Assembly (NCBI GenBank): GCA_964346325.1
Contig: CAYFUK010000001.1
Coordinates: 1 to 40,885, forward strand
Reading direction: 5' to 3'
DNA: 40,885 nt
Origin: an uncultured Candidatus Peribacteria bacterium
GTDB taxonomy: Bacteria > Patescibacteriota > Gracilibacteria > UBA1369 > PNNO01
A program made the position numbers and the translations under genes. This document shows, in pieces, positions 1-25,611 of this stretch; the stretch's first letter is position 1, and each line of letters begins with the position of its first letter. The notes under the pieces are model-generated. The model searched no databases, was not told the origin of the DNA, and saw only the letters and a program-made list of their open reading frames with translations.

Positions 1-60
1 TTATATTATTGCAAAAGTTATTAAAATTATTGAACGATAGGTTTTGATTGCGTTTTAGCC

Positions 61-89
61 TTGAGAAAAAGCCGATTTTTTGGTATAAT
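61..89 (+). promoter_or_regulatory. sigma70-type promoter candidate for the giant-protein operon
   Basis: TTGAGA (61-66), a 17-nt spacer, then the TG-extended -10 TGGTATAAT (81-89). It ends 27 nt upstream of the first ATG at 117. Confidence 0.5.
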
Positions 90-116
90 AATTTAATAAA
101 AATAAAAATAAAACGG

Positions 117-443
117 ATGAATCAAACTAGAGCTGAAAAAACGGAAAAAGCCCTGCGCGAAGTGGTCATTTTGCTTTTAGACAACTGCATGCTTTTATCG
201 GTTGAAGAAAAACAAAACATAGGTGAACTTATTCCGTTGCTTAATAAAAATGAACTTACGGAGTTATTTCAGCTGCTTTTGGGCTCAAAAAGAAGAACAA
301 ACAATATACTCGAAGATCTTGCCGCGGAGTATCCGGCGGTAATGTACGACCTTGATGAATATCAAAAAGAAACTCTTAAAACCGTTTTTAAAGATGAAAG
401 AGATGTTTTAAAAATATCACTTAATAAAACAAATGAATCCTAA
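117..443 (+). CDS. small hypothetical protein (108 aa, helical), first gene of the giant-protein operon
   Basis: The ORF-track frame 48-443 starts at a TTG inside the predicted promoter. The first ATG is at 117 (MNQTRAEK...). No recognisable motif. Its stop overlaps the next start (ATGAATCCTAA, 433-443). Confidence 0.55.
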   Translation: MNQTRAEKTEKALREVVILLLDNCMLLSVEEKQNIGELIPLLNKNELTELFQLLLGSKRRTNNILEDLAAEYPAVMYDLDEYQKETLKTVFKDERDVLKISLNKTNES

Positions 444-3400
444 AACCGCATTAAAAAAAGGTGTGGAATCAGCTGCAAAACAGGTTCCCGAAGCAAAGGA
501 GCAGGTTAAGGAAAAAGCAGCCAAAAGAAGCATGTTTGCAAAAGAAATGCAGTATCAGGTTTATAGAATTGAGAATGTTCTTAAAATAAAAGATGCAAAA
601 ACTTTAAGAAAATTTGTTAAAGAAAACAGCAAATGGTACAAAAATGCAACTTTAACGAACTTTTTTAAATCTTATGAAGCAAAAAAAACAAATGAATTTA
701 TTGAAAAGGCAAAGCAAAAAACCGGCCGGGAGCGCGAGAAACTGTTGATGGGTATTCGTGAGATAGTTTATAAAGCAAAAAAAGAAAAGTACGCGGCAAA
801 AAAGGGCGCGGAAAAAGTGCGGAAAGAAAGAGACAAAGAAACCGAAAAGCTTAAATCTTTGATTGAAAAAGATTTAAACGAACAGGAGATAATTGATATT
901 GAGACCAGCATGTATGATCCGCTTGAGTTTCCGAAGGATAAAATGGATTTTAATAAGATTCAGCAATATTATCTTAAGATTTTAACCGGACAAAAGGTTT
1001 TGGCTGTTCATGCAAAAGGCATGCAGGAGAAATATCAGGGGTCCATGAAAAAAGCTCAAAAATTTCAGGAAAAATATAAATCCGGATGGAGAAAATATGC
1101 GGGCATAGCTGACTGGGGTTACAGAAAAGCAAAAGGTATATGGGGATCGATTAAAAGCGTGTGGTCGGATGATGAGAAGCCGCCTTCACAGTCGGATAAA
1201 ATCAATTCTTTGATGAAAAAGACCGCCAAAGAATATGAAAACAGAATGGCCAGGGTAAAAAATTTAAAGGATAATTTACAGAACAGGTCCAATGAAATGA
1301 AAATCGGACTCGGGACTTTTAAAACAAATTTAAGGGAAAAATTAAAAACACTTATTTCACGCGGGGAATGGACAAAAGCCAAGCAAAAAGAACGCGAATT
1401 TCTAAAAGAAAAATTGAAACAGCAAAAACAGAGAATGGAGGACTCACTTACAAAAGCAAGAAGTCAGGGCGAACAGATTGATAATGCTAAACAGGGCACT
1501 TTAAATTTGAGCCGGGCTTTGCAAAAAAAATATGCAGGCATTGAGAGCGGCGAAAAAAATCTTAACGGCAGAATTAAAGCCGTACTGGCAAGAGTTAAAA
1601 AGCTTGAGAATTATTACGGTTCCGATGACCCGCGTGTCAGGCATATTCGTGAAAACGTTTTGCTGCCTTTAATGCAGGCGCGCGAAAAAATCTCCACTTC
1701 AAAAGAGAACACTGAAGTTAAAATCACAAATGTTGATAAAAAGAATCAAAAGCTGGACATGCTCAAGGCGGATACTTACCTTGCCGCTACTTCTTCGGTG
1801 GATCAGATTTCTAAATTGGATCTGCAGATTTCCAGTGAAGGTAAAAAAATCGATGTACTTAAAAATAAAAGATTTGAACTTCATAAATTACTTGAAGAAA
1901 TGGAGTTCGCTTACGCCGCTGTTGATGAATTCAAGGGTAATGTGGGTAAGAATCTGGATAAAATGAACAAAAATAATGATAAAACAGTTGAAGCTTTAAA
2001 CAAACAGCTTAATGCACTTAATAAAACAAAAGTTAGTCCTCCGGGGCTTGGTTCAAGTTTGTATAATACCGTATTGATAGGTAAACTGGGATTTTACGGA
2101 GCGGTTGTTGAATTGCCGTTTAAGTATACACCCCGCGCTATAGGCTATGCTTTTGCCAAGCTGTTTGGAAGCGATGCTGAATGGGATGATACAAAAAACT
2201 GGACTTTACCGGGTTTGATTGAAGGTGTTACTTCAAAATATGATGAGTGGCTTGATAAAGGAGGCATTAAACAACATTTATCGGAAGATTCAAGCAGCTT
2301 TACCAAACTGATTGCTGAAATTGGAAATTTTGGTGCCGGTGTGGTTGGTATGGCAAATGGAGTTGTAAGGGGTATGAATGCACTTATTTTTGAGACTCCG
2401 AGAACACTGGATTCAATAGGAAAGATTATTACCGACTGGCAATACACAAAAGAAGCAGGCAAAGCTGTTATTAATTATCACCATTGGGAAAAAGGCGATT
2501 ACGGTATAGCCGGCGGTAAAACCGCCGGGGACATACTTTTGTTGGTTTTAACCGCGGGTGCTTCAGCCGGCGGACAGGCCGCGGCAAAAACCGCTGCGGT
2601 TGCGGGTAGAACAAGCAGGCTCGCAAGAGCGCTTGCCTACACTAAAGGCTTTGTTTTGGAGGGCGGAAGAAAGCTTGCAACAGCGCCATATAGAATTGTG
2701 AAATCCGTAAAGAGAATTGGTGTAACAGGTATAGCAAAAGCTCCTTTTGTTCTTACTTACAGGGGTGGCAGGTACGTGTTTGACGTTACGCGCGGCGTAG
2801 TTACCGGTAAAGGAATGACCTATGCATATAAAACAAGATTATCGCGAATTGTTGGCAAAGAAGGCTCGGTCATTGCGCCTGCCGAAGGATCAAAACTGGC
2901 AAGATTAATAGATGATACCGATGATATAGCCAAGTCTGCGAAATTTGAACAAGGAAAGGTTGGGAAATTGATTGAAAATTCCGATATGAAAAATCTATTC
3001 GATAAAGTAAGAGAAAGCGGAGTTAAAGGTTTGTCAATGGATGAGCTGGGGCAATTATATCAGGGAATGGGAAAATTGATGTACGGGAAGAGAACGGGAT
3101 TAATCGCGAGAACAAGGATAGAAGGTTTTAGAAGCAGACTCGGTAAATATATGAAAACAAGAGCAAAGGCAGAAGGATACGAAAGGTATCTTAATAGAGC
3201 CGGCGGTGACATTGATTTACTTAAACAAAATCCAACAACCTTGGCAGGTGTACGCACACTTAAAACAAGAATTCGTGAAAGAATACTTGATATTGATGAT
3301 GAAATTCCAAAGTTAGAAAGAAGAATTGCAAGACTGGAAAAAGATGCAACAGGAAAAGCTGCAAAATTACACTGGTCAAAAAAATTACAACGCATTAAAA

Positions 3401-4074
3401 AAGAAACACCTTTGTTGCAAGCTAAGTACAGACAATTAAGCTACAAAGCGATTCTTAAAAATCGTCCGGTGGCTTTATACAACGCAGCTAAAGAAAAAGC
3501 GGCGAAACTTGCCGAATCCTTTAAAGGTAAGAGCAAAGCTGAAATTGCAAAACAACTGGCTAAAACTGTTACTGCTCCGGTGTGGCTCCCTTATAAATAC
3601 GGAGCAAAACTTATTCAGCGTTATTACAGGTTTTATACAAAGCCGGATAAAGCGGGAGCAATTAAAACTTTAAAGCAAAAAGGAATTCTAAAAGAAGGTT
3701 CTGATGCGGATATGCTTGTGAATTATAAAGCCTTAAGTGATTCTTCAACTCAAATAAACAAGCTTGTTAAATCGGGCAAAGTAAGAGAAGCGGTTGAACT
3801 TTACCAAACAGCCAGAATACATGCTAATGGAGCCGGGATTCCCTTTGCTGCAATTGATCGCTCGTTTATGGGGCATCTGCACAGGGTAGCTCCGCCAACG
3901 GCAAATTATATAAGCAAAGTAACCGATTTAATTGATCCGCGTGTTATAAACGGCCTTCCTGAAAAATTAAAAATAAATTCAGCGGCATGGAAAAAAGAAA
4001 GCGAAAAGCATGCCGGGCTTCTGTCTAAAATGAAGCAAAATACCAAAATAGGAAAAAAATTTATTAATAAATAA
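433..4074 (+). CDS. giant hypothetical protein (1213 aa): Lys/Glu-rich coiled coil with an internal Gly/Ala-rich hydrophobic core
   Basis: Uninterrupted 3.6-kb ORF in an AT-rich genome. Composition is K/E-rich and heptad-like. The core at aa 534-800 includes the glycine zipper GAGVVGMANGVVRG and DILLLVLTAGASAGG. There is no signal peptide and no cysteine. Confidence 0.8.
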   Translation: MNPKTALKKGVESAAKQVPEAKEQVKEKAAKRSMFAKEMQYQVYRIENVLKIKDAKTLRKFVKENSKWYKNATLTNFFKSYEAKKTNEFIEKAKQKTGREREKLLMGIREIVYKAKKEKYAAKKGAEKVRKERDKETEKLKSLIEKDLNEQEIIDIETSMYDPLEFPKDKMDFNKIQQYYLKILTGQKVLAVHAKGMQEKYQGSMKKAQKFQEKYKSGWRKYAGIADWGYRKAKGIWGSIKSVWSDDEKPPSQSDKINSLMKKTAKEYENRMARVKNLKDNLQNRSNEMKIGLGTFKTNLREKLKTLISRGEWTKAKQKEREFLKEKLKQQKQRMEDSLTKARSQGEQIDNAKQGTLNLSRALQKKYAGIESGEKNLNGRIKAVLARVKKLENYYGSDDPRVRHIRENVLLPLMQAREKISTSKENTEVKITNVDKKNQKLDMLKADTYLAATSSVDQISKLDLQISSEGKKIDVLKNKRFELHKLLEEMEFAYAAVDEFKGNVGKNLDKMNKNNDKTVEALNKQLNALNKTKVSPPGLGSSLYNTVLIGKLGFYGAVVELPFKYTPRAIGYAFAKLFGSDAEWDDTKNWTLPGLIEGVTSKYDEWLDKGGIKQHLSEDSSSFTKLIAEIGNFGAGVVGMANGVVRGMNALIFETPRTLDSIGKIITDWQYTKEAGKAVINYHHWEKGDYGIAGGKTAGDILLLVLTAGASAGGQAAAKTAAVAGRTSRLARALAYTKGFVLEGGRKLATAPYRIVKSVKRIGVTGIAKAPFVLTYRGGRYVFDVTRGVVTGKGMTYAYKTRLSRIVGKEGSVIAPAEGSKLARLIDDTDDIAKSAKFEQGKVGKLIENSDMKNLFDKVRESGVKGLSMDELGQLYQGMGKLMYGKRTGLIARTRIEGFRSRLGKYMKTRAKAEGYERYLNRAGGDIDLLKQNPTTLAGVRTLKTRIRERILDIDDEIPKLERRIARLEKDATGKAAKLHWSKKLQRIKKETPLLQAKYRQLSYKAILKNRPVALYNAAKEKAAKLAESFKGKSKAEIAKQLAKTVTAPVWLPYKYGAKLIQRYYRFYTKPDKAGAIKTLKQKGILKEGSDADMLVNYKALSDSSTQINKLVKSGKVREAVELYQTARIHANGAGIPFAAIDRSFMGHLHRVAPPTANYISKVTDLIDPRVINGLPEKLKINSAAWKKESEKHAGLLSKMKQNTKIGKKFINK

Positions 4075-4090
4075 TCTAACAAATATAAAA

Positions 4091-6103
4091 ATGTTTTATT
4101 CAAAATTAATATTCAAAAACGGAGTTGAAACACCTCCGCAAGCGCCGTCGCAAACTCCCGATCAAAAAGCTGAAAAGCTTGAGAAAAGATCGCAGCAAAA
4201 AATTGATGCAAAAAGAAAGGCTGCCGAAAATCTTAAAGATAACAAAAAAGAGCTTTTAAAAAGATGGAAAGAAAATAATCCCGAAAAAAAAGTTGAAGCG
4301 ATTGAAGACGATCCCAAGACCGTGGCAATAGAAAGAATAACAGATTCTTTAAAAGCAAAAGAGACGTATCTTTTGATATCTTTAATGGAAGAGTATTTTG
4401 GAGATAAAGGTGAAAAACTCGCTAAAAAGTTTTTGGCAAAGGGTCTTAAACAAAGTAAATCCGGTGATATTAATTTAAAGTATTTTAGGGAATTCTTTAG
4501 CTGGAAAGGTTACGAGGGTAAATACAGAAGTTTTAATGTTCCGAGAAAACTCGGGTTTTATTATCTTGATCAGTATATGCTTGGCTGGACAACCGTTGAC
4601 CGTATTTCCGTAGGTCCGAAATCCGATAAAGATGATGAACCCTCGGGCGAGAGATATCTTGTTAATGCTTTATATCATATAAAAGCTCAATATAATCAGG
4701 ACACAAAAGATAATGATATGGGGTTATCTGAAGCGCAGCTTAAAAAAGGTTTGAAATTTTTCAAAGATAAACCTGAAGAATTCGAAAACCTGATGAAAAA
4801 GAAAGAATCGGGACTTGGTAAAGACACAATCAAATGGTTTAAAGAAAAAGCGAACGAACACTGGGAGCCTTTAACGGAAAAAATGGCTGCCGCATTAAAC
4901 GTTGTTATCGGAAAGGGTGTAGGAAAATATCTTTACAGATATAATGAAAATCAAAAAAGAATTTATGCAATTTTAATTCAGGGGCAAGAGCCGGAACCTG
5001 ATTTGGGTGTGGGCGGTTATATGGAAATTAAAGATGATAAAATAGGATCATGGAACAAATTTGAAGATTACAATAAATTCAAGACCGAATATATCGATGA
5101 TATGGAAGCTGATAAAGTTAGTGCCGAGGTTGGAAAAGAAAAGTCCGAAGCCGGAGAAGAAATCACAAAAGAACAAAAATTAAAACAAACAGCGGGAATG
5201 ATTTCAACTATCAAGGGAATAAAAGAGGGTCATCCGACTTTTCATGATCTTGATGATTATTATGAAGATATAAAAACAAAACTTAAAAAAGAGCTTAAAG
5301 AAAAAAAGGGAATCACCAAAAATCTTGATTCCATTGTTCAGGCAAGAGTTGATGATATTAAATCAAAAGTGGATTCGGCCATTGAATCCGACGAAGCACT
5401 TAAAGAAGCCGGTGAAAAAGACAAATCAACAAAACTTGAAATCAGGGTTAATTCAAATGACGAAGTAACCGTTAAGTTTGATAAACCCGCGGGCAGAGAA
5501 AAATGGAGAAAACTTGCCGAAAAAGCCAAAGAAAAAGGTTCCGATGTTGGGGCTTTGGCTAAAAAAGCAAGGTCGCAGTTAAATGAAAAAGTTAAAAAAA
5601 TGTTCGGGAAGGGAGCTCCGATTGCAATGTGGTTTTTGGATAAAATTTTAAAAATTGATGAAGGGATCAAAAAAATATTAAGCGGAAAAAGCGCTCCCAT
5701 TACAGCCTTTGCACTTGGTGCTCTTGGGATTTCCGTTACACCGGCACTTGTTGGAGCCAGAAAATATAACAGTAAAAAATTCGATAAATTATTAAGCGGA
5801 TTATTCAAAGACGACAAAGAAAAAGAAGCAAAATATAAAAAGAAGGTAACCTTAACGCAGGATTATAAGCTTTCGGGTTATTCCATTACCATTCCGAAAG
5901 GTGAAGGAATCATACTTAAATCCGGCAAAAAATTGCAAATAAAGGGCGGTGAACTTGTAGGTAAAAAAGAAAAGAAAAAAGGATTGTTCTCGGGAGGAGA
6001 AGAAGTAGCCGAACTTGGAAAAGATCAGGAAATAGTGATTGAAGATGGTACAACAATTCCGGATGGGACAATTATCAAAAAAATGAAAGTAAAAAAATCT
6101 TAA
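4091..6103 (+). CDS. large hypothetical protein (670 aa), Lys-rich, with an internal hydrophobic hairpin
   Basis: 2-kb ORF starting 16 nt after the previous stop. The hydrophobic segment at aa 508-556 reads GAPIAMWFLDKIL...SAPITAFALGALGISVTPALVGA. The C-terminal end is beta-like and Gly/Ile/Lys-rich. No cysteine and no signal peptide. Confidence 0.8.
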   Translation: MFYSKLIFKNGVETPPQAPSQTPDQKAEKLEKRSQQKIDAKRKAAENLKDNKKELLKRWKENNPEKKVEAIEDDPKTVAIERITDSLKAKETYLLISLMEEYFGDKGEKLAKKFLAKGLKQSKSGDINLKYFREFFSWKGYEGKYRSFNVPRKLGFYYLDQYMLGWTTVDRISVGPKSDKDDEPSGERYLVNALYHIKAQYNQDTKDNDMGLSEAQLKKGLKFFKDKPEEFENLMKKKESGLGKDTIKWFKEKANEHWEPLTEKMAAALNVVIGKGVGKYLYRYNENQKRIYAILIQGQEPEPDLGVGGYMEIKDDKIGSWNKFEDYNKFKTEYIDDMEADKVSAEVGKEKSEAGEEITKEQKLKQTAGMISTIKGIKEGHPTFHDLDDYYEDIKTKLKKELKEKKGITKNLDSIVQARVDDIKSKVDSAIESDEALKEAGEKDKSTKLEIRVNSNDEVTVKFDKPAGREKWRKLAEKAKEKGSDVGALAKKARSQLNEKVKKMFGKGAPIAMWFLDKILKIDEGIKKILSGKSAPITAFALGALGISVTPALVGARKYNSKKFDKLLSGLFKDDKEKEAKYKKKVTLTQDYKLSGYSITIPKGEGIILKSGKKLQIKGGELVGKKEKKKGLFSGGEEVAELGKDQEIVIEDGTTIPDGTIIKKMKVKKS

Positions 6104-6128
6104 AACTATTATTTAAAATAAAAATAAA

Positions 6129-9100
6129 ATGGCATCAAAATTAAGTTTAAAATCAAAAGGCATTGAGCGGCCCGAATCGTTTGAGGCTGTTGAAGCAAAG
6201 AAGCTCACCGAATCAGAAGAAGAAAAGATCTCGCGGAGTCTGATTATAAGGTGGTATATGGCTAAAAAGTTTGAAAAACTTAAAGCTTTGCAGAATAAAA
6301 TTATCGAAGCGTCGTACAGTGAGAGGGAAGAAATTAAAGAAAGAATAATAAAAAACACAAAAGAAGAATTGTCGAAACATAAAGATTTAACAAAAGAAGA
6401 AGTTGAAAGACGCTCAAAACAGCTTGCCGATGAAGTTATTAATGTTGCGGAAGGGCGTGCAGATATGTCGCTTGTTGCAAAAAGGTATGCTGTGCAGGAA
6501 GAAGAACAGAAAGTTTTTTATAAAGTTGTTGATGGATTTGTGAGCCGTGAAAATCAGAGTGAAACATTGCAGAAAATTGCAAAGAATCCTAAGTTTGCTG
6601 ATTTTTTGAATGGAATTAAAGCTCATGATCCCGCTACTGCAAAAAGAATAGATATGGCAATTAAAGAAGGTGACTACGAGGGTTTGCAAAAAATAGTTGA
6701 AAAATCAACAGACGGTAAAATAAATAAATCCGCAATGAACAGATTTATGGCGATCGGAGTACTCGGATCCGCTCATGTTAAGGAATACACACCGGTTGAT
6801 ACGGTAAACAAAGCTATATCCTTTTTGGATCAGTACAGGCATGTGGGGCATGGATTTGCCTTGGATAAAGCTTCGCAGGATATCGGGATTCCTTTTTTGC
6901 TTGTTGCCCGTTTTGCTTCGTGGACACTCAGGGACTTCAGGCAGATGGATAATATTATGCAGAGAAACAAACATCTGATTGAACAAAAAGATAAAAAATC
7001 GATTAAAGATAACGAACGTCTGGTTTTTATAGAACACATGCATAAGGCAAGAATGAAACTTGAAGATAAAGTGAAAGGTGATAAAGATCTTCAGTCAAAT
7101 TTTGAGAAAGCTTTGGATAAGTATCTGGACAGCAAAGAGGAACTTGGCGAACGTGATAAACAGGAGATAAAACAGGCATCGAGATATGAGGATTTAAGGC
7201 TTGTTCAGCTTTTTGAGTATTATTACGCGGAAGATGAAGACCGATACAGATGGTTGATGAAGTCAGCATCAAGAGTTCCAACAATGATAAGATTTGCCAA
7301 ACATGTGTTTGGAGAGCAGAGGTATATAAAAGCCACAATGCTTAGGTATACAAAAAGAAGACTTCTTGACCGTTCAATTACCAACTTCAGGATGAATGCA
7401 AAAAACTGGGGTATGAAAGATATTCTCAGAAATATGAATGATTTTGAAAATAAGATTACGAGATCAAGAGGGGAAGCATTAACAAAATATGAAGATCTGT
7501 ATCGAGAAGCTTCTAATTATAAAGTTGATGCCGATGAAATAACGGCAAAAAGAAGCTATCTTGATAAAGAGCTTTTGGATCAGGACAGAATGCTTCAAAG
7601 GTATGCCATTTTGGTAAAAAGGGCTACAAGGATTATGTCTGATAAGGCCAAAAAGGTTATTGAAGCGGGTAAATCAATACAGGCGGCACAAAAAGGAGCC
7701 GGAAAAAGTTTTTTAACAAAAAAGCTGCATCAGCTTCCTCATGTTTCCGATCAGACACTTGAAGCAATAGGGCTGGATAAAGCAAAAAAAGCGGGTTATA
7801 CGGGTGCCGATTTGATCAACGGATATACAAGAAGGCTTGTTGATATTAAAACCATGGAGGATGTAACAAGAGCAAGATTCAGTGCTTTGGCGGATGTGGT
7901 TGATACCAATGTTGCAAGGCCGGTTGGTACTGCGTGGCAGGGAAGAATGGACGTAGCCAAAGGTGTTAGTGACAGAGCAAAAATACGAAAAAAATTACAG
8001 AATATCGAAGACCTTGCTAAACCGCACAAAGGCCGTTATATTGCCAAGACATTCGGCTTACCGGCAATTATTATAGGTATTCAGGGGTACGATTTATTTA
8101 CGGGAAAGGCAAAAACAAATGAGGTCCTGTGGGATATGGGAGAAGCGGCAGGTGGATTTGTACCTTTTTTGGGTACCGCACTTGATATAAGGGGCCTGAT
8201 TAAAGGTGAGAGTTTATCAGGCAGAAAATTAAATACAAAAGAGCGATGGATGTATGCGGGATTTGCAGCGATCGGAGCAATCGCCGATGCCGCAATATTA
8301 ATTGGCGGACTCGGGCTTGGTATACGTGCGGGGCTCGGAGGAGTGAGAGCGGGCAGACGTGCCGTTAAAGCCGGCAGCGCACTTGCGGGAGCAAGAAAAA
8401 CAGGCGGTTTACGTGATATGGCTTATGCCTCAAAATTGCCGTTTTTTCAGCGGCAGATTGCCAAAGCCGGCTCAAAATTCAATAAAGTAAGAAGAGCCGA
8501 CGGAGCAGCTGAAGCTTTGTATACAAGAAAAGCAATTACTCATGCAAATAAAATATCAAAGTATAATTCGGGAGTTAAAGACACGTATAAAATTGAAAAA
8601 TTTTCTGATATCGAAGGCAAAATTAAGATTGCCGAGAAGGCCGGAGAAATGCCTACAGTAAGAAAACTCGAGAGATTAAGAAAAACGTTAAAAAAGTTGG
8701 GAAGTATTGAAGGTCTTGATGTTTTAAAAGACGTTGGAAAAGGCATTGATATACCGCGGGGATTTTTCAGCAGGCAGTGGCTTAAAAGTAAAAAGGCATT
8801 TCTTGGCATTAAACAATGGTTGCTTTCAATCGGAATTCCTCCCAAGACTATCAAAAACTACGAAAAATCATTTAGTGCCGTTGCAAGCGCAAAGCAAAAT
8901 AAAGCCAAGGCATTGGATGATCTTCATGATTTGATAAAAGCAAAAGAAGGAACAAGACTTAAAGCTGTTGATACATATAAAGAGTATATGGTTAAAGCGG
9001 AAAAACACGGGCAGACAGCTATTGATTACACAAAAGTCGTTGATGATATATCAAAACAAAAACGAAAACATATAAGACTTGGAGGAATAAAAAGATCAAA

Positions 9101-9959
9101 AAAGGAACATCTGAAACATGTAGAAAAATTACATAAAGGGAAAAAAGCAACCGAAGCCGAAGTTAATGCCGCAAAAAAAGCATTAAAAGAGGCTGATGAA
9201 AAAATTAAGGCTTCAAGAAAATACAGTAAAAAATTGATCGATCGTAAGAAAAAATTGTCCAAAGAACTTAAAACAAAAGGTGATGATGCCAAAGGCTGGA
9301 AAAAAGAGTTTGACAGTGCAAATACAAGTTTAAGTAAAATTGAAACAGATGTTGTAAGGCACGAAGATAAGCTAAGAGCCGCAGAAGAATCTATTGTTTC
9401 CGCAAATACAAAAAGAGCGATGATGTCCATGGAAATGGAAAATAAAGCAACGCGAATGGCACGTTACCACGATAAAACAGCTAGTGTGGCAAAGCTTTTG
9501 CAGTATGGGGGGCTTGCAATGGGCGGAATATGGTTGTTCTCCGGTTTTCACGCCGGACCTGCGGAGCAACTTAAAACAGCGAGTAAAGCCGTTAAAGGTG
9601 CAGCTAAAATGGGAGGCAAAACATTTGATTATGTAATGCTTCAGGATCATTCGGGAAGACCTCCTATTGATCAAATGGTTGAGGAGCGTGTTAGAAAAGT
9701 TAAAATGCGAGAAGAACTTAACGGTTATGTTGAGAAAGCAACCCGGCGCGGTGTAAAACCCGAAGAAGTGCTTGCAAAACACTGGAATACCGATGAAGCA
9801 AAAGAAATCGCAAGACGTCAGGGCTTATACCAAAAAGTGCAAAAACTTATTGCCGATAAAAAGGTAACACCCGAAACAGCGCAAAGAGCAAGGGCAAAAC
9901 TGCGCGATGTTGCAACAGGCGACTCTGCGGGCAAAGCCGGTGAAAAGTTGGCCGGATAA
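6129..9959 (+). CDS. giant hypothetical protein (1276 aa): coiled coil with a PT-TG-like Gly-rich membrane core
   Basis: 3.8-kb ORF. Residues 641-760 read TFGLPAIIIGIQGYDLFTGK...GGFVPFLGTALDIRGLIKGESLSGRKLNTKERWMYAGFAAIGAIADAAILIGGLGLGIRAGLGG. A second hydrophobic hairpin is LLQYGGLAMGGIWLFSGFHAG (aa 1123-1143). No cysteine and no signal peptide. Confidence 0.8.
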   Translation: MASKLSLKSKGIERPESFEAVEAKKLTESEEEKISRSLIIRWYMAKKFEKLKALQNKIIEASYSEREEIKERIIKNTKEELSKHKDLTKEEVERRSKQLADEVINVAEGRADMSLVAKRYAVQEEEQKVFYKVVDGFVSRENQSETLQKIAKNPKFADFLNGIKAHDPATAKRIDMAIKEGDYEGLQKIVEKSTDGKINKSAMNRFMAIGVLGSAHVKEYTPVDTVNKAISFLDQYRHVGHGFALDKASQDIGIPFLLVARFASWTLRDFRQMDNIMQRNKHLIEQKDKKSIKDNERLVFIEHMHKARMKLEDKVKGDKDLQSNFEKALDKYLDSKEELGERDKQEIKQASRYEDLRLVQLFEYYYAEDEDRYRWLMKSASRVPTMIRFAKHVFGEQRYIKATMLRYTKRRLLDRSITNFRMNAKNWGMKDILRNMNDFENKITRSRGEALTKYEDLYREASNYKVDADEITAKRSYLDKELLDQDRMLQRYAILVKRATRIMSDKAKKVIEAGKSIQAAQKGAGKSFLTKKLHQLPHVSDQTLEAIGLDKAKKAGYTGADLINGYTRRLVDIKTMEDVTRARFSALADVVDTNVARPVGTAWQGRMDVAKGVSDRAKIRKKLQNIEDLAKPHKGRYIAKTFGLPAIIIGIQGYDLFTGKAKTNEVLWDMGEAAGGFVPFLGTALDIRGLIKGESLSGRKLNTKERWMYAGFAAIGAIADAAILIGGLGLGIRAGLGGVRAGRRAVKAGSALAGARKTGGLRDMAYASKLPFFQRQIAKAGSKFNKVRRADGAAEALYTRKAITHANKISKYNSGVKDTYKIEKFSDIEGKIKIAEKAGEMPTVRKLERLRKTLKKLGSIEGLDVLKDVGKGIDIPRGFFSRQWLKSKKAFLGIKQWLLSIGIPPKTIKNYEKSFSAVASAKQNKAKALDDLHDLIKAKEGTRLKAVDTYKEYMVKAEKHGQTAIDYTKVVDDISKQKRKHIRLGGIKRSKKEHLKHVEKLHKGKKATEAEVNAAKKALKEADEKIKASRKYSKKLIDRKKKLSKELKTKGDDAKGWKKEFDSANTSLSKIETDVVRHEDKLRAAEESIVSANTKRAMMSMEMENKATRMARYHDKTASVAKLLQYGGLAMGGIWLFSGFHAGPAEQLKTASKAVKGAAKMGGKTFDYVMLQDHSGRPPIDQMVEERVRKVKMREELNGYVEKATRRGVKPEEVLAKHWNTDEAKEIARRQGLYQKVQKLIADKKVTPETAQRARAKLRDVATGDSAGKAGEKLAG

Positions 9960-9988
9960 TAAAATTAATTATTTAACTTCAAATAAAC

Positions 9989-10213
9989 ATGGAATTAAAA
10001 TTCAACGCAAAACTCATTTCTCTTTTTATAGTTCGCATTTTTGAAGTCGCGATTCTGTATGCGGTGAATGTGTGGGTATGGTATAACTTTCCGCCACCAT
10101 ACAATTTTTGGCTTATAATATCTTTGATAGGATTATATGTTTTGTATGCGGGCGTGACTCTGTTTAACGATTATTACGAACTCACACGCGGCGAAGGCGA
10201 ACCAATGGAGTAA
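9989..10213 (+). CDS. small two-TM membrane protein (74 aa), last gene of the operon
   Basis: Two hydrophobic helices (LISLFIVRIFEVAILYAVNVWVWY and FWLIISLIGLYVLYAGVTLF) and an acidic tail. Starts 29 nt after the giant gene. An intrinsic terminator follows directly. Confidence 0.6.
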   Translation: MELKFNAKLISLFIVRIFEVAILYAVNVWVWYNFPPPYNFWLIISLIGLYVLYAGVTLFNDYYELTRGEGEPME

Positions 10214-10235
10214 ATTTCTTGTTGCCAAACAGCTG

Positions 10236-10268
10236 GTCCATCCCTAAACTTAGGGGTGGACTTTTTTT
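10236..10268 (+). terminator. rho-independent terminator ending the giant-protein operon
   Basis: GTCCATCCC (10236-10244) pairs with GGGGTGGAC (10253-10261): 9 bp including one G-U pair, with an 8-nt loop. T7 follows at 10262-10268. Confidence 0.65.
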
Positions 10269-10272
10269 GAGT

Positions 10273-10318
10273 ACTCGGTACCCTGGGGTACCCGGTACAT
10301 CCATTTACTCGGTAACCC
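10273..10318. promoter_or_regulatory. GGTACC-type palindrome and direct repeats upstream of ndk (operator candidate)
   Basis: GGTACCC-TG-GGGTACC is a perfect 7-bp inverted repeat at 10277-10292. ACTCGGTACCC (10273-10283) recurs as ACTCGGTAACCC (10307-10318). The ndk ATG is at 10327. Confidence 0.25.
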
Positions 10319-10326
10319 ACTTAATT

Positions 10327-10806
10327 ATGAACTTCGACGGAGTTGAAGAAAAAACACTTGTACTTGTAAAACCCGATGCTATCCAGCGCAGCTTAACAGG
10401 AGAAATCATCAACCGCTTTGAGCGAAAAGGCCTTAAACTTGTAGGAATCAAAATGATGGGCCTTGATGATGAGCTTCTCACAAGGCATTATTCTCATTTG
10501 GCTGATAAACCTTTTTTCCCCAGCCTTACCAAGTTTATGAAGAGTTCGCCTGTAATTGCAATGTGCTGGGAAGGGCTTGAAGTTGTTAATGCTGTGCGTG
10601 AACTTTGCGGAATCACTAAAGCAAGGGAAGCTGAAGCCGGCTCTATAAGAGGCGATTTTGCAATGAGTGTAAGTTGTAATGTTGTGCATGCATCCGATTC
10701 TGTGGAAAATGCTCAAACCGAAGTTAGCAATTTTTTCAAACAGGAAGAGATTCACGATTATGCGAAATCAGAATATGAGCATGTGTATGCCGAAGATGAA
10801 AAATAG
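10327..10806 (+). CDS. ndk: nucleoside diphosphate kinase
   Basis: Matches include KTLVLVKPDAIQR, INRFERKGLKLVG, SIRGDF and the active-site NVVHASDS. The start is set at ATG 10327 because the TTG-extended frame from 10219 runs through the upstream terminator. Confidence 0.9.
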   Translation: MNFDGVEEKTLVLVKPDAIQRSLTGEIINRFERKGLKLVGIKMMGLDDELLTRHYSHLADKPFFPSLTKFMKSSPVIAMCWEGLEVVNAVRELCGITKAREAEAGSIRGDFAMSVSCNVVHASDSVENAQTEVSNFFKQEEIHDYAKSEYEHVYAEDEK

Positions 10807-10813
10807 TCATATT

Positions 10814-11575
10814 ATGCACGTTATTTTAAACGGCAAACTGGTTGCTAAAAATAAAGCAAAGATCAGCGTATTTGATCGCGGCTTTAAGTTCGGGGATGCA
10901 ATTTACGAAACTTTAAGAACAATCAACGGCACTCCCTGGCTTTTAACGCAGCATCTTAAACGTCTCAGAAATTCAGCGAAAATTTCGGGAATAACAGTTC
11001 CTTTAAAAAATAATGAATTTGAGTATCACATAAAAAGACTTCATAAAAAAAACAACAACAAAGAATCCAGAATCCGAATAACTCTTTCAAGGGATCTCAC
11101 ACTTTTGATTGAAGCTGAAAAACTCACAAAACCCCACAATCTCAGTAAAGGCGTTTCCGCAATCACATACAAGGCCGAGCGTCCCAACCCCGGCATAAAG
11201 TCCACCAATATGCTTCCATCGATTCTGGCGCGCAGAGAAGCCGATAAAAAAAACGCCTACGAAGCACTGCTTGTAAATAAAAAAAATAATATTACCGAAG
11301 GTGCTTTTTCAAATATTTTTGCGGTAGAAAACGGGCGCCTTATAACTCCCAAAAACGGCATATTGGAAGGCACTGTTAGAAATTACATAATAAAAAAATA
11401 TCCAAAAGTCATGCAAAAATCGATTCCGCTCTCTAAAATCCATACCTACGACGAATTGTTTGTTACCTCAAGCACATTCGGTGTGGTTCCGATTATAAAA
11501 GTTGACGGGAAGCCTATAAACAATGGTACAATAGGTCGGATAACACAATATATTATTAAACTTTTGCCTCTATGA
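10814..11575 (+). CDS. pabC: class IV aminotransferase-fold protein, likely aminodeoxychorismate lyase
   Basis: N-terminus MHVILNGKLVAKNKAKISVFDRGFKFGDAIYETLR, the catalytic-Lys region IKSTNMLPSILARREA, and ELFVTSS. About 250 aa, directly overlapping the folP start. ATG 10796 is an alternative start. The pabC assignment rests on context. Confidence 0.65.
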   Translation: MHVILNGKLVAKNKAKISVFDRGFKFGDAIYETLRTINGTPWLLTQHLKRLRNSAKISGITVPLKNNEFEYHIKRLHKKNNNKESRIRITLSRDLTLLIEAEKLTKPHNLSKGVSAITYKAERPNPGIKSTNMLPSILARREADKKNAYEALLVNKKNNITEGAFSNIFAVENGRLITPKNGILEGTVRNYIIKKYPKVMQKSIPLSKIHTYDELFVTSSTFGVVPIIKVDGKPINNGTIGRITQYIIKLLPL

Positions 11576-14127: not shown

Positions 14128-14991
14128 ATGAACGACTTAACAGAGCTTGAAAAGAAGGCGACCCGGCTAAGGCTGCAAACAATCAATGCAATACACAAGG
14201 CCAAAACCGGGCATACCGGAGGGTGTCTTTCGGTTATGGATATCCTTGTTACGCTTTATTACGGCAAAATTGAAAATCAGCCTATTTTAAGGGTTGATCC
14301 CGAAAAGCCGGGATGGGAAGATCAGGATTATTTTGTTCTGTCAAAAGGACATGCTGCGCCGGCACTTTATTCCGTACTTGCCGACCGCGGATTTTTTGAT
14401 TCGGATGAGCTTAATTATTTACATCAGCTTAATGCCATGCTTCAGGGGCATCCACATCAAAAAATACCCGGAGTACCTGTAACAAGCGGCTCGCACGGTC
14501 ACGGCTTTGCCGCTGCTCACGGCCTTGCAATGTCACTGAAAATGGATAAAAAATCAAACAAGGTTTTTGCGGTACTGGGTGATGGTGAACTTCAGGAAGG
14601 TGTGGTGTGGGAAACCGCAATGTCGGCTGCGCATCATAAACTCGATAATCTTCATATTTTTGTTGATAACAACGAGCTTCAGGCCGACGGTTTTACAAGA
14701 AGCGTAATGAATGTTGAACCGATTGTTGAAAAATTCGAAGCATTCGGATGGCGTGTTGTCAAAGTTAGAAACGGCCATGATTATGAAGAGCTTTTAAGTG
14801 CGGTTGATAAGGTTTATTACGCTTCGCGAAAGCCAAATTGCATTATCTGCAATACAGTTAAGGGTAAAGGAGTTGAATTTGCGGAACGTATTACCGGTTA
14901 TCATAAAACCGCATTCAGTGAAGCGGAAATGAAAGAAGCAACAAAATCTCTTGAAGAAAAATTAAAAAAATTAACCGCCCGGAACAAATGA
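14128..14991 (+). CDS. tkt: transketolase, N-terminal (TPP-binding) subunit
   Basis: GHTGGCLSVMDILVTLYY, LSKGHAAPALYSVLADRGFF, GSHGHGFAAAHGLA and LGDGELQEGVVWE. Confidence 0.9.
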   Translation: MNDLTELEKKATRLRLQTINAIHKAKTGHTGGCLSVMDILVTLYYGKIENQPILRVDPEKPGWEDQDYFVLSKGHAAPALYSVLADRGFFDSDELNYLHQLNAMLQGHPHQKIPGVPVTSGSHGHGFAAAHGLAMSLKMDKKSNKVFAVLGDGELQEGVVWETAMSAAHHKLDNLHIFVDNNELQADGFTRSVMNVEPIVEKFEAFGWRVVKVRNGHDYEELLSAVDKVYYASRKPNCIICNTVKGKGVEFAERITGYHKTAFSEAEMKEATKSLEEKLKKLTARNK

Positions 14992-16570: not shown

Positions 16571-17527
16571 ATGCAGTTTTCAAAAGGAGACAGAATCTCA
16601 ACATTAGACGCCTTTTCCGGGGCTATTGCAGCATTTGGAGGCCGCAATAAAAAAGCTGTTGTTCTTAATGCCGATACGGGCATTGATTCCAAAACAGGAA
16701 AATTTGAAAATTTGTACCCTGACAGGCATTTTAATTTTGGTAATGCCGAAGCCAATATGGTAAATACAGCCGCGGGTTTTGCCGCAAGAGGAAAAACTCC
16801 TTTTGCAGTCGGGCATGCGATTTTTGTAACCGGAAAGCCATGGGAGCATATCCGAAACAGCATTTGTCTTCCTAATCTGAATGTAAAATTGATAGGCACA
16901 CACGCGGGTCTTTTAACCGGCGAGGAAGGAGCTATTTTTCAGGCTATTGAAGATATTGCGATTATGCGCGCGATTCCGAATATGAAGGTTGTTTCGCCTG
17001 CTGACGCTGTTGAAACCTATTATGCAATTGATGAAATGATGAGGGATTTTGGACCCACTTATTTGCGACTCGGCCATCCGGATGTTCCTGTTCTTTATTC
17101 CGCGGAGCATCGGTTTAGAATCGGTTATGGTGATATTCTGAATTTTGGTGAAGATATAAGCCTGATTGCAACCGGAACAATGGTTCATATTGCAATGGAA
17201 GCAGCGGATCGTCTTGAAAAGGAAAAGTCAATAAGAGCAATGGTTGTTAATATGAGTTCAATAAAGCCGATTGATGAAAAGTTGGTTCTTGACTGTGCCA
17301 AAAAAACAAAAATGGTTTTTACACTTGAGGATCACGGGACAACAGGGGGCCTGGGTAGTGCTGTAAGTGACTTTTTAATTGAAAAATTTCCCGTAAAAGT
17401 TCATAAAATAGGTATGGAAAAGTTCGGAGAATCGGGTAAGCCCGCAGATTTATATAAAAAATACGCCCTAAACAGCCAAGGCGTATTTGAAACCGTTAAT
17501 TCATATCTTCGGGATCTGAAGTTATGA
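16571..17527 (+). CDS. tkt: transketolase, C-terminal (pyrimidine-binding plus C-terminal domain) subunit
   Basis: FGNAEANMVNTAAGFAARGKTPF, GTHAGLLTGEEGAIFQAIEDIAIMRAIPNM, IKPIDEK and TLEDHGTTGGLGSAV. Confidence 0.9.
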   Translation: MQFSKGDRISTLDAFSGAIAAFGGRNKKAVVLNADTGIDSKTGKFENLYPDRHFNFGNAEANMVNTAAGFAARGKTPFAVGHAIFVTGKPWEHIRNSICLPNLNVKLIGTHAGLLTGEEGAIFQAIEDIAIMRAIPNMKVVSPADAVETYYAIDEMMRDFGPTYLRLGHPDVPVLYSAEHRFRIGYGDILNFGEDISLIATGTMVHIAMEAADRLEKEKSIRAMVVNMSSIKPIDEKLVLDCAKKTKMVFTLEDHGTTGGLGSAVSDFLIEKFPVKVHKIGMEKFGESGKPADLYKKYALNSQGVFETVNSYLRDLKL

Positions 17528-20156: not shown

Positions 20157-22238
20157 ATGAAAAGATCACTTTCCTTTCTAATTGCATTACTTCTGTTTTT
20201 TCCAAATCCCGCAGCGGCTCAGGAAGAAACACCGGCAAAAATACCCGTGCTCGAGTATCATAATTTCGGTGAAACGGACAGCCGCTGGACACGATCTTAC
20301 GAAAAATTCAGGCAGGACCTTGAATGGCTTTATAATAACGATTACAGGGCAATCACAATTGAGGGATTCATGAATCTTGATTTTGAAGGAATTGAAGACG
20401 GCATGAAGCCCGTGATCTTAACTTTTGATGATTCGAGCAAGAATCAGATGAAAGCGGTTGAAATTATGGATGAATTTTTAGAAGATCACCCTGATTTTGG
20501 CTCCGCGGCAACATTTTTTGTTTTACCTTTCGGATTTACGGATGAAGAAATTAAATATTTAATCGATTCGGGAAGACAAATTGAAAGTCATACATACGGT
20601 CATGAAAAACTCAATGAACTTACTCCCGATCAAATAGAATCAACCTTAACAAAAGCGGAAGAAGAACTGGGAATGGAGTTTGATTATTTGGCCTATCCCA
20701 ATGGTATTCCACCTGCAGAATCGAACATGGCCGCCCTTAAACCACATGTGAAGGCAGCTTTTTTAGTTGGTGCGGAACCTTCGTATCTTCCAAATCATGA
20801 AAAGTTTGATCCTTATAAAATTCCGCGAATCCAGACTATTGATGATGAATGGATAAGGCATTTTAATAGGCGGCCGGGAGAAACACAAAAATCCGAATCA
20901 TCAGAAAAATTCAGACTTTATCGGGTCGGTGATCCGGTTGAGCCCGTAAAAAAGTATCCCTATCAAAAATGCAAACCTTTTGATATGGAAAGGCCCTCTT
21001 TCGGTAAATTGGCATGGAAATGGCTTAAATATAAATCCGATAAAATTCGGATCAATAAAGTGCCGAATGGTCTGCATTACAAAAACGGCGGTTTTTACTA
21101 CACAATTACAGGAGAAGAAGAAGCCTCAATTGCAAGTGAGCTTTTTGATTATTCAAGACATTACAGAGTTTCCGATTTTAAAAAATCCATTGTTAATGCT
21201 AATCCGGAAGCCGGGTTCATACCCGAAGAAGAGATCTTAATACCCGACATACCGTTATTTTTGGTTAAACAAAAAATTGATGTTGATGATCCATGGGGAA
21301 TTTATTTTACCGCCTACACCGCAACATCAGATGAAGGTCCGCGTTTGGTTGAACAATTAAAGAAAAGCGGAGGTCGGCTTATAGTGTTTGATGTTAAAGA
21401 GATCGATGGCCATGTGTATTTTCCCACGTCAGCCAAACTTGCGCACGAAACAGGTGCACAGGACGCAATTTTATATCCCAATCTTGAAAATTATATAAGA
21501 TACTGGCATGAACAGGGGATTTATCTTGCTGCAAGAATTGTGATTTTTAAAGATATAAATATGGCTTCAAACAGGCCCGATCTTGCTATTCAGAGCAAAG
21601 CGGGCGGGCCGTGGTCCAATCGGGAGGGCGTTGTATGGCTTGATCCTTCAAATAAACAAACACAGGATTACATTTTAACTTTGGCAGAAGATCTTGCAAA
21701 AGCCGGAGTGGATGAAATCCAGTTTGATTATATAAGGTTTCCGACGCTGGGGCCGGTTAGCCGGGCTGATTATAATTTTGACGAGTCAAAAACGGAAAAA
21801 TACGAAGTGATACGAAACTTTATCGTGAGGGTTCATGATCGTTTAAAACCTTATGAATCAAAGCTTTCTCTGGATGTATACGGTGTTATAGTATGGAACA
21901 ATGAATATGATTCAATGTCAACGGGGCAGAAAATGGGTTGTCTGGCACCTTTCATTGATGTTGTTTATCCCATGGTTTACCCTTCTCATTTTGGTCCGGG
22001 TTTTGGCGGATATGCGAATCCGGGAGATCATCCGTATTTTTTTGTACAGGAAAGCATGAAATTGTTCGGAAAATATCTTGAAGGAACAGATACCGCAATA
22101 AGGCCGTGGCTTCAGGCTTTTGCATGGCGCGTTAATAATTACGGCCGGTGGTATATTGATGAGCAGGTTAAAGCCGCTTATGATGAAGGTGCGAAAGGGT
22201 ATGCTTTATGGAATGCCGGAAACAACTACTTTTATTAG
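20157..22238 (+). CDS. secreted two-domain protein: CE4 polysaccharide deacetylase plus glycoside-hydrolase-like TIM barrel (DUF4015-type), PgaB-like architecture
   Basis: Signal peptide MKRSLSFLIALLLFFPNPAAAQ starts at ATG 20157; the ORF-track start at 20118 is TTG. CE4 motifs are LTFDDSS and ESHTYGHE. The C-terminal half has VFDVKEIDG, WLDPSN and EIQFDYIRFP, typical of GH-like barrels. Confidence 0.8.
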   Translation: MKRSLSFLIALLLFFPNPAAAQEETPAKIPVLEYHNFGETDSRWTRSYEKFRQDLEWLYNNDYRAITIEGFMNLDFEGIEDGMKPVILTFDDSSKNQMKAVEIMDEFLEDHPDFGSAATFFVLPFGFTDEEIKYLIDSGRQIESHTYGHEKLNELTPDQIESTLTKAEEELGMEFDYLAYPNGIPPAESNMAALKPHVKAAFLVGAEPSYLPNHEKFDPYKIPRIQTIDDEWIRHFNRRPGETQKSESSEKFRLYRVGDPVEPVKKYPYQKCKPFDMERPSFGKLAWKWLKYKSDKIRINKVPNGLHYKNGGFYYTITGEEEASIASELFDYSRHYRVSDFKKSIVNANPEAGFIPEEEILIPDIPLFLVKQKIDVDDPWGIYFTAYTATSDEGPRLVEQLKKSGGRLIVFDVKEIDGHVYFPTSAKLAHETGAQDAILYPNLENYIRYWHEQGIYLAARIVIFKDINMASNRPDLAIQSKAGGPWSNREGVVWLDPSNKQTQDYILTLAEDLAKAGVDEIQFDYIRFPTLGPVSRADYNFDESKTEKYEVIRNFIVRVHDRLKPYESKLSLDVYGVIVWNNEYDSMSTGQKMGCLAPFIDVVYPMVYPSHFGPGFGGYANPGDHPYFFVQESMKLFGKYLEGTDTAIRPWLQAFAWRVNNYGRWYIDEQVKAAYDEGAKGYALWNAGNNYFY

Positions 22239-22735
22239 TGTTTGTGAGTGTTTAAGTCATCCACCAGATTATTATGAGCTTGTTCAAAAGCTTGTTCGTT
22301 TCTTTTGATTACTTCTTTAAATGAATCGATTGACTGCTGGGTGAATTCTTTTTGTTCAAAATATGTAATGCTTTTAAGGAACGTATTTGTAATATTATCC
22401 AGAGCATGCATGTATTCGTTTAAAATACTCTCATTAATATAAGATAATCTTTCTTTTCGATCTATAATTTTATCAACAATATTTTTGAGTTCGTTGATAT
22501 TACTTTTTTCGGATAATGTAAAATAAATATCTTTGGCTTTGGTTGTTGCCAGGGCGATGTTATGGGTTTGTTCAACTATTTGATTATGGATATGAGCTTG
22601 TTTGTTTGTTGACGATTCTATTGCGGAAATATTGGTTTGTCCCAACTGAAGATCAAAAACACCAAAAACAACCAAAGTTCCCGTTATTACAATTACAACT
22701 GTGGCTATTAATGAATAAAAAAGGAACTTTTTCAT
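22235..22735 (-). CDS. membrane-anchored hypothetical protein (166 aa)
   Basis: N-terminal TM FLFYSLIATVVIVITGTLVVFGVF followed by a helical ectodomain. Convergent with the previous gene, sharing 4 nt. Confidence 0.6.
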   Translation of the reverse strand: MKKFLFYSLIATVVIVITGTLVVFGVFDLQLGQTNISAIESSTNKQAHIHNQIVEQTHNIALATTKAKDIYFTLSEKSNINELKNIVDKIIDRKERLSYINESILNEYMHALDNITNTFLKSITYFEQKEFTQQSIDSFKEVIKRNEQAFEQAHNNLVDDLNTHKH

Positions 22736-25591: not shown

Positions 25592-25602
25592 TTGTCAGAA
25601 TA

Positions 25603-25611
25603 TGTTATAAT
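25603..25611 (+). promoter_or_regulatory. TG-extended -10 box placing the transcription start at the ATG of the next gene (leaderless candidate)
   Basis: TGTTATAAT at 25603-25611. The last T is 7 nt before A of ATG 25618. The box sits inside the 8-bp inverted repeat CAGAATAT/ATATTCTG (25596-25617). Confidence 0.35.

Follow-up and report, generated by a model that had tools for sequence, protein, structure and literature searches.

A five-gene operon between a conserved promoter and a conserved terminator

The window examined here is a 40,885-nucleotide (nt) stretch of DNA from an uncultured Candidatus Peribacteria bacterium (contig CAYFUK010000001.1, positions 1 to 40,885), and our subject is the operon that fills its first ten kilobases. 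Five plus-strand genes, P1 to P5, form one unit lying between a conserved promoter and a conserved terminator. P1 (117..443, +) encodes an acidic protein of 108 amino acids (aa; net charge -5) that reads as helical, P2 (433..4074, +) a protein of 1213 aa, P3 (4091..6103, +) a basic protein of 670 aa and mixed alpha/beta structure, P4 (6129..9959, +) an all-helical protein of 1276 aa, and P5 (9989..10213, +) a protein of 74 aa whose two hydrophobic helices come with an acidic tail, NDYxELTRGEGEP, that is conserved. P1 and P2 overlap by 11 nt, and the P2-P3, P3-P4 and P4-P5 gaps measure 16, 25 and 29 nt. These coordinates, lengths and spacings all agree with an original prediction made from the DNA letters. 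At 37% GC we calculate about 0.068 stops per codon, so that a 1213-codon frame would stay open by chance with p ~1e-37. A chance origin of the P2 frame is excluded, and other genomes have conserved counterparts of all five products.

The operon promoter is of the sigma-70 type, TTGAGA-17-(TG)TATAAT with an extended TG (61..89, +). It matches 11 of 12 positions and scores highest in the region 1-10900. Its equivalent (10-11/12) is found 23-39 nt before the P1 start in eight homologous loci; loci on related contigs are labelled L003-L013 here, and homologous database proteins P00xx. The intrinsic terminator (10235..10268, +), likewise the strongest in 1-10900, consists of a hairpin at 10235-10262, with a 12-bp stem (6 G-C pairs) and a 4-nt loop, followed by a run of seven T. 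The hairpin after P5 is kept in eight loci, in sequence as well as in structure, even where P4 is at 25% identity; the conserved sequence, GTCCATCCC ... GGGTGGAC TTTTTT, lies in the P5-ndk intergenic region (window 10214-10326, and also L003, L004, L007-L010 and L012). Consensus-like promoters are not enriched overall (20 vs 26.9 expected), nor are terminators (9 vs 10.1 expected). The weight of the two elements, which had earlier been proposed to bracket the genes and are the best of their kind in the region, comes instead from the position that both keep in eight homologous loci.

A Shine-Dalgarno sequence is absent from all five starts (88-116, 403-432, 4061-4090, 6099-6128 and 9959-9988), and the leaders are A/T-rich, which suggests Shine-Dalgarno-independent initiation in the source organism. 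Past P5, a conserved TTGC[ACG]A stands 17 nt before a TAAACT/TACACT/TAATAT hexamer, and the hexamer forms the hairpin loop (window 10222-10250). The ndk promoter therefore seems to overlap the terminator of the operon and to place its -10 element in the loop. Repeats of the TACTCGGTA/TACCGAGTA type occur between the hairpin and ndk in several loci. A TTG at 10219 was considered as the ndk start (mechanical open reading frame 10219-10806, overlapping the terminator) and is ruled out by homologues and gene calls, which place the true start at the ATG at 10327 (159 aa).

Vertical inheritance in a very small Patescibacteria clade

The P1-P2-P3-P4-P5 set is found in the same order in about 10 distinct metagenomic genomes, always directly 5' of ndk, so the small-giant-large-giant-small arrangement seen in the window is kept. 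The operon is single-copy, at a fixed chromosomal site next to ndk. Downstream, the window and its relatives alike carry ndk, an aminotransferase IV gene, folP, PTPS, CYTH and folK, the housekeeping neighbours (ndk, folate genes) noted earlier for the window. The database record of the same contig, from a microbial-mat metagenome, adds just ~130 nt 5' of the window; the upstream side was read from related contigs. These carry genes for a peptidase M16, PBP2 (PBP_dimer plus transpeptidase) and a GH18 protein with an SLH domain, sometimes with an extra small gene. Phage or conjugative genes at this place, which would have spoken against a novel system, were looked for and these genes were found instead. 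Upstream neighbours differ in the L010/L011 branch, and the ndk junction is constant in all loci. Furthermore, the flanks of all loci examined contain no phage, conjugation or secretion-system genes.

Transposase genes are present near some copies of the operon. In L011 a transposase-like gene (13-1050; weak rve-type matches) lies directly upstream, replacing the PBP2/GH18 neighbours, and Y1_Tnp genes are found a few kb upstream in L003 (3021-3449) and L005 (1490-1921).

Searches of large collections gave a narrow distribution. A word-seeded search of 5.8 billion clusters returned 13 homologues of P2, 6 of P4 and 4 of P3, and the operon proteins are present in 2 of 185,579 species genomes. The first of two metagenome scans was without match and the second gave two loci; an alignment of the core motif proved too variable as a seed. 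The carriers are on record as 'Patescibacteria group bacterium' or 'bacterium', one of them, OY969931.1, being a complete 1.37-Mb chromosome. No relatives were detected in IMG/VR, in 50,697 phage genomes or in 72,556 plasmids. Together the results show that the operon is confined to a very small Patescibacteria clade, and a phage or plasmid origin is rejected.

Sequence divergence was compared between the operon and its surroundings. Between the window and L003, the housekeeping neighbours share 66-91% identity, whereas P1 to P5 share 78, 57, 46, 61 and 62%. In L008, the most distant locus, identity is 81% for NDK and 65% for FolP, whereas P4, P3 and P5 drop to 25, 29 and 36%. These identities and the synteny indicate vertical inheritance at a fixed site, with the operon kept intact and changing faster than its neighbours. 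The operon stays whole even where protein identity has fallen to 25%, which means that it is under selection as a unit. Conservation extends over the full length of the proteins with many invariant columns, indicating that they are constrained and are not drifting low-complexity sequence. An important function in a streamlined genome had been argued from the size of the operon; the very small clade and a divergence far faster than that of the housekeeping neighbours qualify this argument.

A divergent PT-TG domain in the hydrophobic core of P4

P4 is the most conserved of the three large proteins. When P1 to P5 were scanned singly against Pfam, PHROGs, NCBIfam and PADLOC, the outcome was sub-threshold noise apart from PT-TG (PF14449) in P4. 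PT-TG is a pre-toxin domain of unknown function and structure in toxins of the type VI and type VII secretion systems (T6SS, T7SS) and of contact-dependent inhibition (CDI), as described in the Pandoomain survey (PMC13483458). The match covers P4 aa 672-733 (nt 8142-8327) with 16.1-16.3 bits (E ~0.01), below the gathering threshold of 23.5, and falls in a conserved hydrophobic core (aa 640-760; 8046..8408, +; Pfam and family profile); a Gly-zipper-like stretch comes after it.

We consider the match to be real for three reasons. First, 11 of 29 P4-family members match PT-TG at E <= 0.01 (best 5e-6), and some pass the Pfam threshold. Second, the P4 profile retrieves P0064, P0067, P0068 and P0071 (E 6e-7 to 3e-5), proteins whose sole Pfam domain is PT-TG (23.8-30.4 bits), located within the region aligned to P4. 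Third, the family motif, LPAIxxG ... GKAK ... GFVPxxGTxLD[FI][KR] ... SLSG[RK]KL ... ER ... F..IG.[VI]AD ... GG.G...R, holds the surveyed positions: across the 29 members P679, G682, D686, G698, G716, D720 and G729 are invariant and T683 nearly so, with an R or K two residues after D686 in most, and the most conserved PT-TG positions are G, D and R in a loop of ~15 residues around the TG motif (PMC13483458). Judged from these sequence features, the hydrophobic core of P4 is a divergent PT-TG domain, which in the window protein itself stays below the Pfam cut-off. The original prediction could place none of the five proteins in a described family; this holds for four of them and not fully for P4. 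In a HMMER search of 1.84 billion representative proteins the P4 profile gave 51 matches at E <= 1e-3, 26 of them at E <= 1e-30. The tetratricopeptide repeat (TPR) proteins P0054 and P0057 among these are spurious repeat matches.

An AlphaFold2 (AF2) model of P4 aa 120-1276, built from a 29-sequence alignment, is helical throughout, with a predicted local distance difference test (pLDDT) score of 69.5. In it, aa 120-630 form a globular N-domain of ~25 short helices (pLDDT ~75-85), aa 634-726 add four short ones over the hydrophobic core, an unconfident Gly-rich stretch comes next, and four long helices (aa 905-1137, pLDDT 85-93) precede a small C-terminal helical domain. Long helices are limited to aa 479-527, 559-630 and 905-1137. 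Foldseek searches of the Protein Data Bank (PDB) with this model retrieved generic helical bundles only (E >= 0.25).

Against BFVD, in contrast, the top neighbours of the P4 model were tape-measure and minor tail proteins, raising the question of whether the operon is a domesticated phage remnant in which a small acidic chaperone accompanies tail tape-measure or ejection proteins. The layout resembles that of a chaperone plus tape measure, in which a small acidic protein precedes a long helical one with central Gly-rich hydrophobic segments. However, the BFVD matches are non-significant (E 0.004-0.6, tape-measure proteins only at E >= 0.0065, TM ~0.07), no PHROG match falls below E 0.004, none is to a tape measure, and all concern families of unknown function. 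Likewise, tblastn of P2, P3 and P4 against the phage genomes finds nothing, and no tail, capsid, integrase or other phage gene lies in any flank. We regard this explanation as largely refuted and barely credible.

The two ends of P4 are conserved as well. At its N-terminus lies a module (aa 25-126; 6201..6506, +) with an invariant W42 and the motif KKFEKLK, which is conserved in distant family members. In one branch an extra gene of 771-773 aa stands between P3 and P4 (L004 11322-13643, L009 7624-9939), and its product joins a P3-like body to a copy of the module (38-41% identity to that of P4, E 1e-16). Because it also heads this P3-like paralogue, the module is portable, presumably mediating a shared docking or targeting interaction. 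That W42 and a W-x-x-G/A pattern make the P4 N-terminus WXG100-like is only an idea; the Pfam WXG/LXG models gave no match.

Hydrophobic segments were detected in P4 at aa 708-739, with a Kyte-Doolittle value of 1.99 at aa 712-730, and at ~1122-1142. The second, Gly-rich segment (YGGLAMGGIWLFSGF; aa 1122-1142; 9492..9554, +) contains invariant G1128, G1132, I1134, W1135 and F1140 and is kept in distant relatives. The C-terminal 130 aa (DHSGxPxID ... W ... KVQKL) are conserved across the family, and their motifs are retained in a distant subfamily. No toxin Pfam domain or variable C-terminal toxin domain was found in the P4 family. Likewise, no LXG, WXG, VgrG, FHA or other trafficking domain was detected in P1-P5 (Pfam, E <= 1) or in the family members scanned (E <= 0.01).

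The other large proteins and the two small proteins

P2 has 13 homologues at 27-60% identity, conserved along their full length, and no Pfam match was obtained among 10 family members scanned. Its heptad-like part spans aa 255-535 (1195..2037, +; windows 255-307, 325-355 and 456-535, located with a crude heptad script). It is followed by a conserved, moderately hydrophobic, Gly-rich centre (aa 535-730; 2035..2622, +) with 11-15 Gly per 100 aa, the pattern G-x3-G-D ... T-x-G-x-S-x-G and invariant G550, G553, G647, G695, D700 and G709. No 19-residue window there reaches a Kyte-Doolittle value of 1.4. Near the C-terminus lies a module (aa 1033-1186; 3529..3990, +) to which the C-terminal extension of P0003 aligns with 31% identity (E 1.5e-13). 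Three homologues (P0002-P0004) are ~240 aa longer than P2 because this ~150-aa module is tandemly duplicated.

P3 is conserved over its full length in six genomes, and a scan of its family likewise gave nothing consistent. Its AF2 model, from four sequences, is poor (pLDDT 57.5), with helices and a C-terminal beta-rich domain of moderate confidence (aa 575-670; 5813..6100, +; strands at pLDDT ~74-88 except for a low-confidence loop near aa 628-637). The domain carries the conserved motifs KLxGYxIxIPKGxG ... DQEIxI ... TIPxGT, and upstream of it lies the hydrophobic segment ITAFALGALGISVTPALVG (aa 537-555; 5699..5755, +; Kyte-Doolittle 1.78 over 19 residues). Foldseek searches of the PDB with the P3 model gave no match below E 0.1.

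P1 is conserved at 41-75% identity in five loci, with 31 invariant columns, and has no family match in Pfam, PHROGs, NCBIfam or PADLOC; it is a candidate chaperone or partner. The P5 gene always follows P4 in the loci examined. Identity of P5 is 32-64% across six loci, and P5 is more conserved than the giants, with 61-66% identity where P4 has 39-41%.

Charge, cysteine exclusion and signs of membrane association

The original prediction had called the large proteins Lys/Glu-rich. They are instead Lys-rich and strongly basic, with net charges of +106 (P2), +27 (P3) and +91 (P4). Per 100 aa the charge is +8.7 for P2 and +7.1 for P4, against a mean of -1.2 for the other proteins of the window, and those among them that appear from their N-termini to carry a signal peptide are acidic. 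By inspection of the sequences (no predictor was run), P1 to P4 have no N-terminal signal peptide, as had been said earlier of the large proteins. Cysteine is missing altogether from P2, P3 and P4 (0 of 3159 residues), whereas 25.7 would be expected from the frequency in their neighbours (Poisson probability 7e-12), and homologues contain mostly 0-3 and at most 6. BLASTP reveals no paralogy among the three (hhalign probability 0.2% for P2 vs P4). Sequence searches of the PDB, with single sequences and with profiles, gave no match.

A domain-less coiled coil had been proposed for the giants. This description is overstated: heptad-like windows make up only ~18% of P2 and P4 residues, compared with 6-7% in shuffles (crude script), P4 is modelled as a multi-domain all-helical protein with a PT-TG core, and the C-terminus of P3 is beta-rich. 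Confident profile matches to tape-measure, ejection, SMC or adhesin families, which would have assigned the proteins to known classes, were looked for and none was obtained for any operon protein.

The charge would also suit cytoplasmic proteins that bind nucleic acids or organise the chromosome, whether SMC-like or polycationic condensers, and that play no part at the membrane. P2 aa 263-531 weakly match an SMC coiled coil, which points the same way. This match, however, reaches 17.1 bits against a TIGR02169 cut-off of 729.4 and concerns the coiled-coil part only; Pfam SMC_N and AAA gave no match, and we saw no Walker motifs on reading the sequences of the large proteins. Members of the P2 family are all strongly basic (+42 to +147). 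The wider P4 family spans net charges from -13 to +100, and charge is therefore not an invariant feature of P4. What is invariant are the hydrophobic Gly-rich segments, and the operon includes a two-helix membrane protein. We find a nucleoid role very unlikely. Judged from hydropathy, the hydrophobic segments in the operon proteins support membrane association.

Proposed explanations: an assembly on the cell's own membrane or an exported set

We tentatively favor, at less than even confidence, the view that this operon, clade-specific and inherited vertically, encodes the parts of a large protein assembly on the cytoplasmic membrane of the cell itself. In this scheme the bulky basic helical domains would stay in the cytoplasm, lying against the anionic inner leaflet, while the Gly-rich hydrophobic hairpins would anchor the assembly in the membrane. 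In P4, the PT-TG loop would be flanked by aa ~641-658 on one side and 706-733 on the other and may point outward. P5, with two helices and an acidic tail, would be the integral-membrane docking partner, the small, acidic P1 would serve the giants, which are basic, as chaperone or assembly factor, and the N-terminal module common to P4 and the extra P3-like paralogue would be a shared docking element. The role would be structural and not catalytic, organizing or shaping the envelope, possibly at a contact site.

The high positive charge of P2 and P4, set against the acidic putative signal-peptide proteins of the window, fits cytoplasmic retention under the positive-inside rule. The lack of an N-terminal signal peptide, the all-helical P4 model with its four long helices and globular N-domain, and conserved hydrophobic segments flanked by basic residues also count for this explanation. 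The stronger conservation of P5 than of the giants fits a structural membrane partner. Furthermore, the C-termini are conserved and not polymorphic, the neighbors are housekeeping and cell-wall genes, and no secretion genes lie close by: secretion ATPase, EssC-type ATPase and WXG100 genes were absent within ~10 kb of the operon in L003-L005 and L010-L013, and from the 30 kb downstream in the window. We prefer the assembly on the cell's own membrane because it dispenses with an unknown export machine, obeys the positive-inside rule and fits vertical, non-polymorphic, structural-looking conservation.

Several observations weigh against it. Outside this operon, PT-TG has been described almost exclusively in secreted polymorphic toxins and effectors of the T6SS, T7SS and CDI (PMC13483458), and on a cytoplasmic scaffold it would be unprecedented. 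Fast divergence and complete absence of cysteine are typical, too, of proteins outside the cytoplasm or at a host interface. Nowhere is the P2 sequence hydrophobic enough to form a classical membrane helix, and Foldseek, PDB and hhalign comparisons gave no fold or sequence link to a known cytoskeletal or membrane-scaffold family.

The PT-TG core, the divergence and the cysteine exclusion count in turn for an exported effector or translocon set, in which P4, and perhaps P2 and P3, would leave the cell by a non-Sec route and insert in a membrane. The cationic helices would bind the anionic membrane of a host or neighbor, and the Gly-rich hairpins, including the PT-TG core, would form a pore or anchor; P1 would be a Lap-like targeting partner or chaperone, and P5 would protect the producer membrane or help insertion. 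A signal-peptide-less helical protein with a central hydrophobic hairpin is the build of type III secretion system (T3SS) translocators and chlamydial Inc proteins. A gene for a small acidic protein lies upstream, one for a small two-helix membrane protein comes right after P4, and the ~100-aa N-terminal module is common to P4 and the P3-like paralogue, as a trafficking domain would be. In addition, a large class of 'PT-TG singletons' without recognised trafficking or toxin domain often has small helical genes just upstream (PMC13483458). On the other side, no LXG, WXG or other trafficking domain was detected, the P4 C-terminus is conserved with no variable toxin domain, the locus is strictly vertical, single-copy and fixed, and its flanks hold no secretion genes. 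P5 is conserved and does not evolve fast as an immunity protein would, and P1 precedes P2, not P4. In the literature searched there is no report of a T7SS in Patescibacteria, and the matches there concern the host's system. Export is possible, though on the unlikely side.

A more specific form of export, which we consider improbable, is a host-membrane-breaching device of an episymbiotic clade, in which the giants would pass through an unrecognised route and their hairpins would form a feeding pore or an anchoring junction in the host bacterium. If so, the P4 N-terminal module would be the shared export or docking signal, P1 the chaperone and P5 the shield of the producer, and PT-TG would be a membrane-insertion element and not a passive 'pre-toxin' linker.

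The own-membrane and exported explanations fit about equally well and differ on where the bulk of the protein ends up; the probability that remains belongs to explanations outside those considered here.

Little is known of how Patescibacteria attach to other cells and take up resources from them, and the majority of their large lineage-specific proteins are unannotated. The operon takes ~10 kb of a genome of ~1.4 Mb (size from the related complete chromosome). With PT-TG in a vertically inherited operon that is not polymorphic, there is a clean system in which to ask what this domain does. A mechanism discovered here may be narrow in scope, given the very small clade to which the operon is confined.

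Other features of the window

Elsewhere in the window the transketolase is split into N- and C-terminal genes (14128-14991 and 16571-17527), with a signal peptidase gene, a DUF192 gene and ~0.6 kb between the halves. Open reading frames without Pfam match lie at 24917-26715, 22235-22735, 29663-30184, 31121-31552 and 40266-40778; among such frames is an adjacent pair, downstream of uvrB, encoding acidic, cysteine-free proteins of 224 and 365 aa. The cumulative GC skew reaches its maximum near 26 kb and declines from there (~26000-32000), coinciding with a switch from plus- to minus-strand genes; the peak could be a replication terminus or a mere effect of gene orientation. No tRNA genes, and no Rfam matches above any gathering threshold, were found in the window.

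Comparison with known systems

The closest described class is that of the PT-TG singletons (PF14449). P4 shares their loop motif, GFVPxxGTxxD[FI][KR] ... SG[RK]KL ... ER followed by a hydrophobic stretch, as well as the lack of a recognised trafficking or toxin domain and the small helical gene upstream in the operon. In contrast to singletons, P4 carries PT-TG in mid-protein, with ~640 aa of conserved helical domain before it and ~540 aa after it, scores below the Pfam cut-off (16.1 vs 23.5 bits) and belongs to a fixed five-gene operon that is vertical and not polymorphic. By its domain content P4 fits the singleton class. The other marks of a polymorphic toxin are missing: P4 lacks a trafficking domain, its C-terminus is conserved, and its single-copy locus is fixed and has no secretion genes close by. 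On this reading of the sequence, P4 adds a non-polymorphic architecture to the PT-TG class.

The T7SSb LXG effectors of Firmicutes, with their Lap partners and immunity genes, resemble P4 in being helical, free of a signal peptide and endowed with PT-TG. Their loci likewise have a small helical protein gene upstream, a small protein gene directly downstream and an N-terminal module common to two proteins. The operon differs in that it has no LXG/WXG match, no variable toxin domain and no EssC or T7SS genes in its flanks, P1 stands before P2 and not P4, and P5 is conserved. Phage tape-measure proteins are alike in length (1000-1500 aa), all-helical structure, central Gly-rich hydrophobic segments and a small acidic protein gene upstream; they differ from the operon giants, which show no sequence or profile similarity to them, have no phage context, sit in housekeeping synteny and are absent from phage and viral collections.

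Scy/FilP, crescentin, EzrA and Mycoplasma HMW2 are large helical proteins without enzymatic motif or signal peptide, lineage-specific, fast-evolving and associated with the envelope or with polarity. The operon giants differ from these coiled-coil cytoskeletal proteins in that only a minority of their residues is heptad-like, in their Gly-rich hydrophobic cores, PT-TG and extreme charge, and in the lack of homology. T3SS translocators of the YopB/IpaB class and chlamydial Inc proteins are helical or coiled-coil, have a hydrophobic hairpin in the middle, lack a signal peptide and are encoded next to a small acidic chaperone. The operon proteins are two to three times larger and show no homology to them, and to our knowledge the monoderm Patescibacteria have no T3SS. 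The 'large proteins' of the Patescibacterium danicum paper were considered as relatives and are FhaB-type exoproteins, unrelated to the giants.

By the sequence and profile comparisons made here, the operon as a unit matches nothing described, and four of its five proteins are without detectable relatives outside the clade. Each explanation nevertheless maps onto an existing general class, either the PT-TG effectors or the helical membrane scaffolds.

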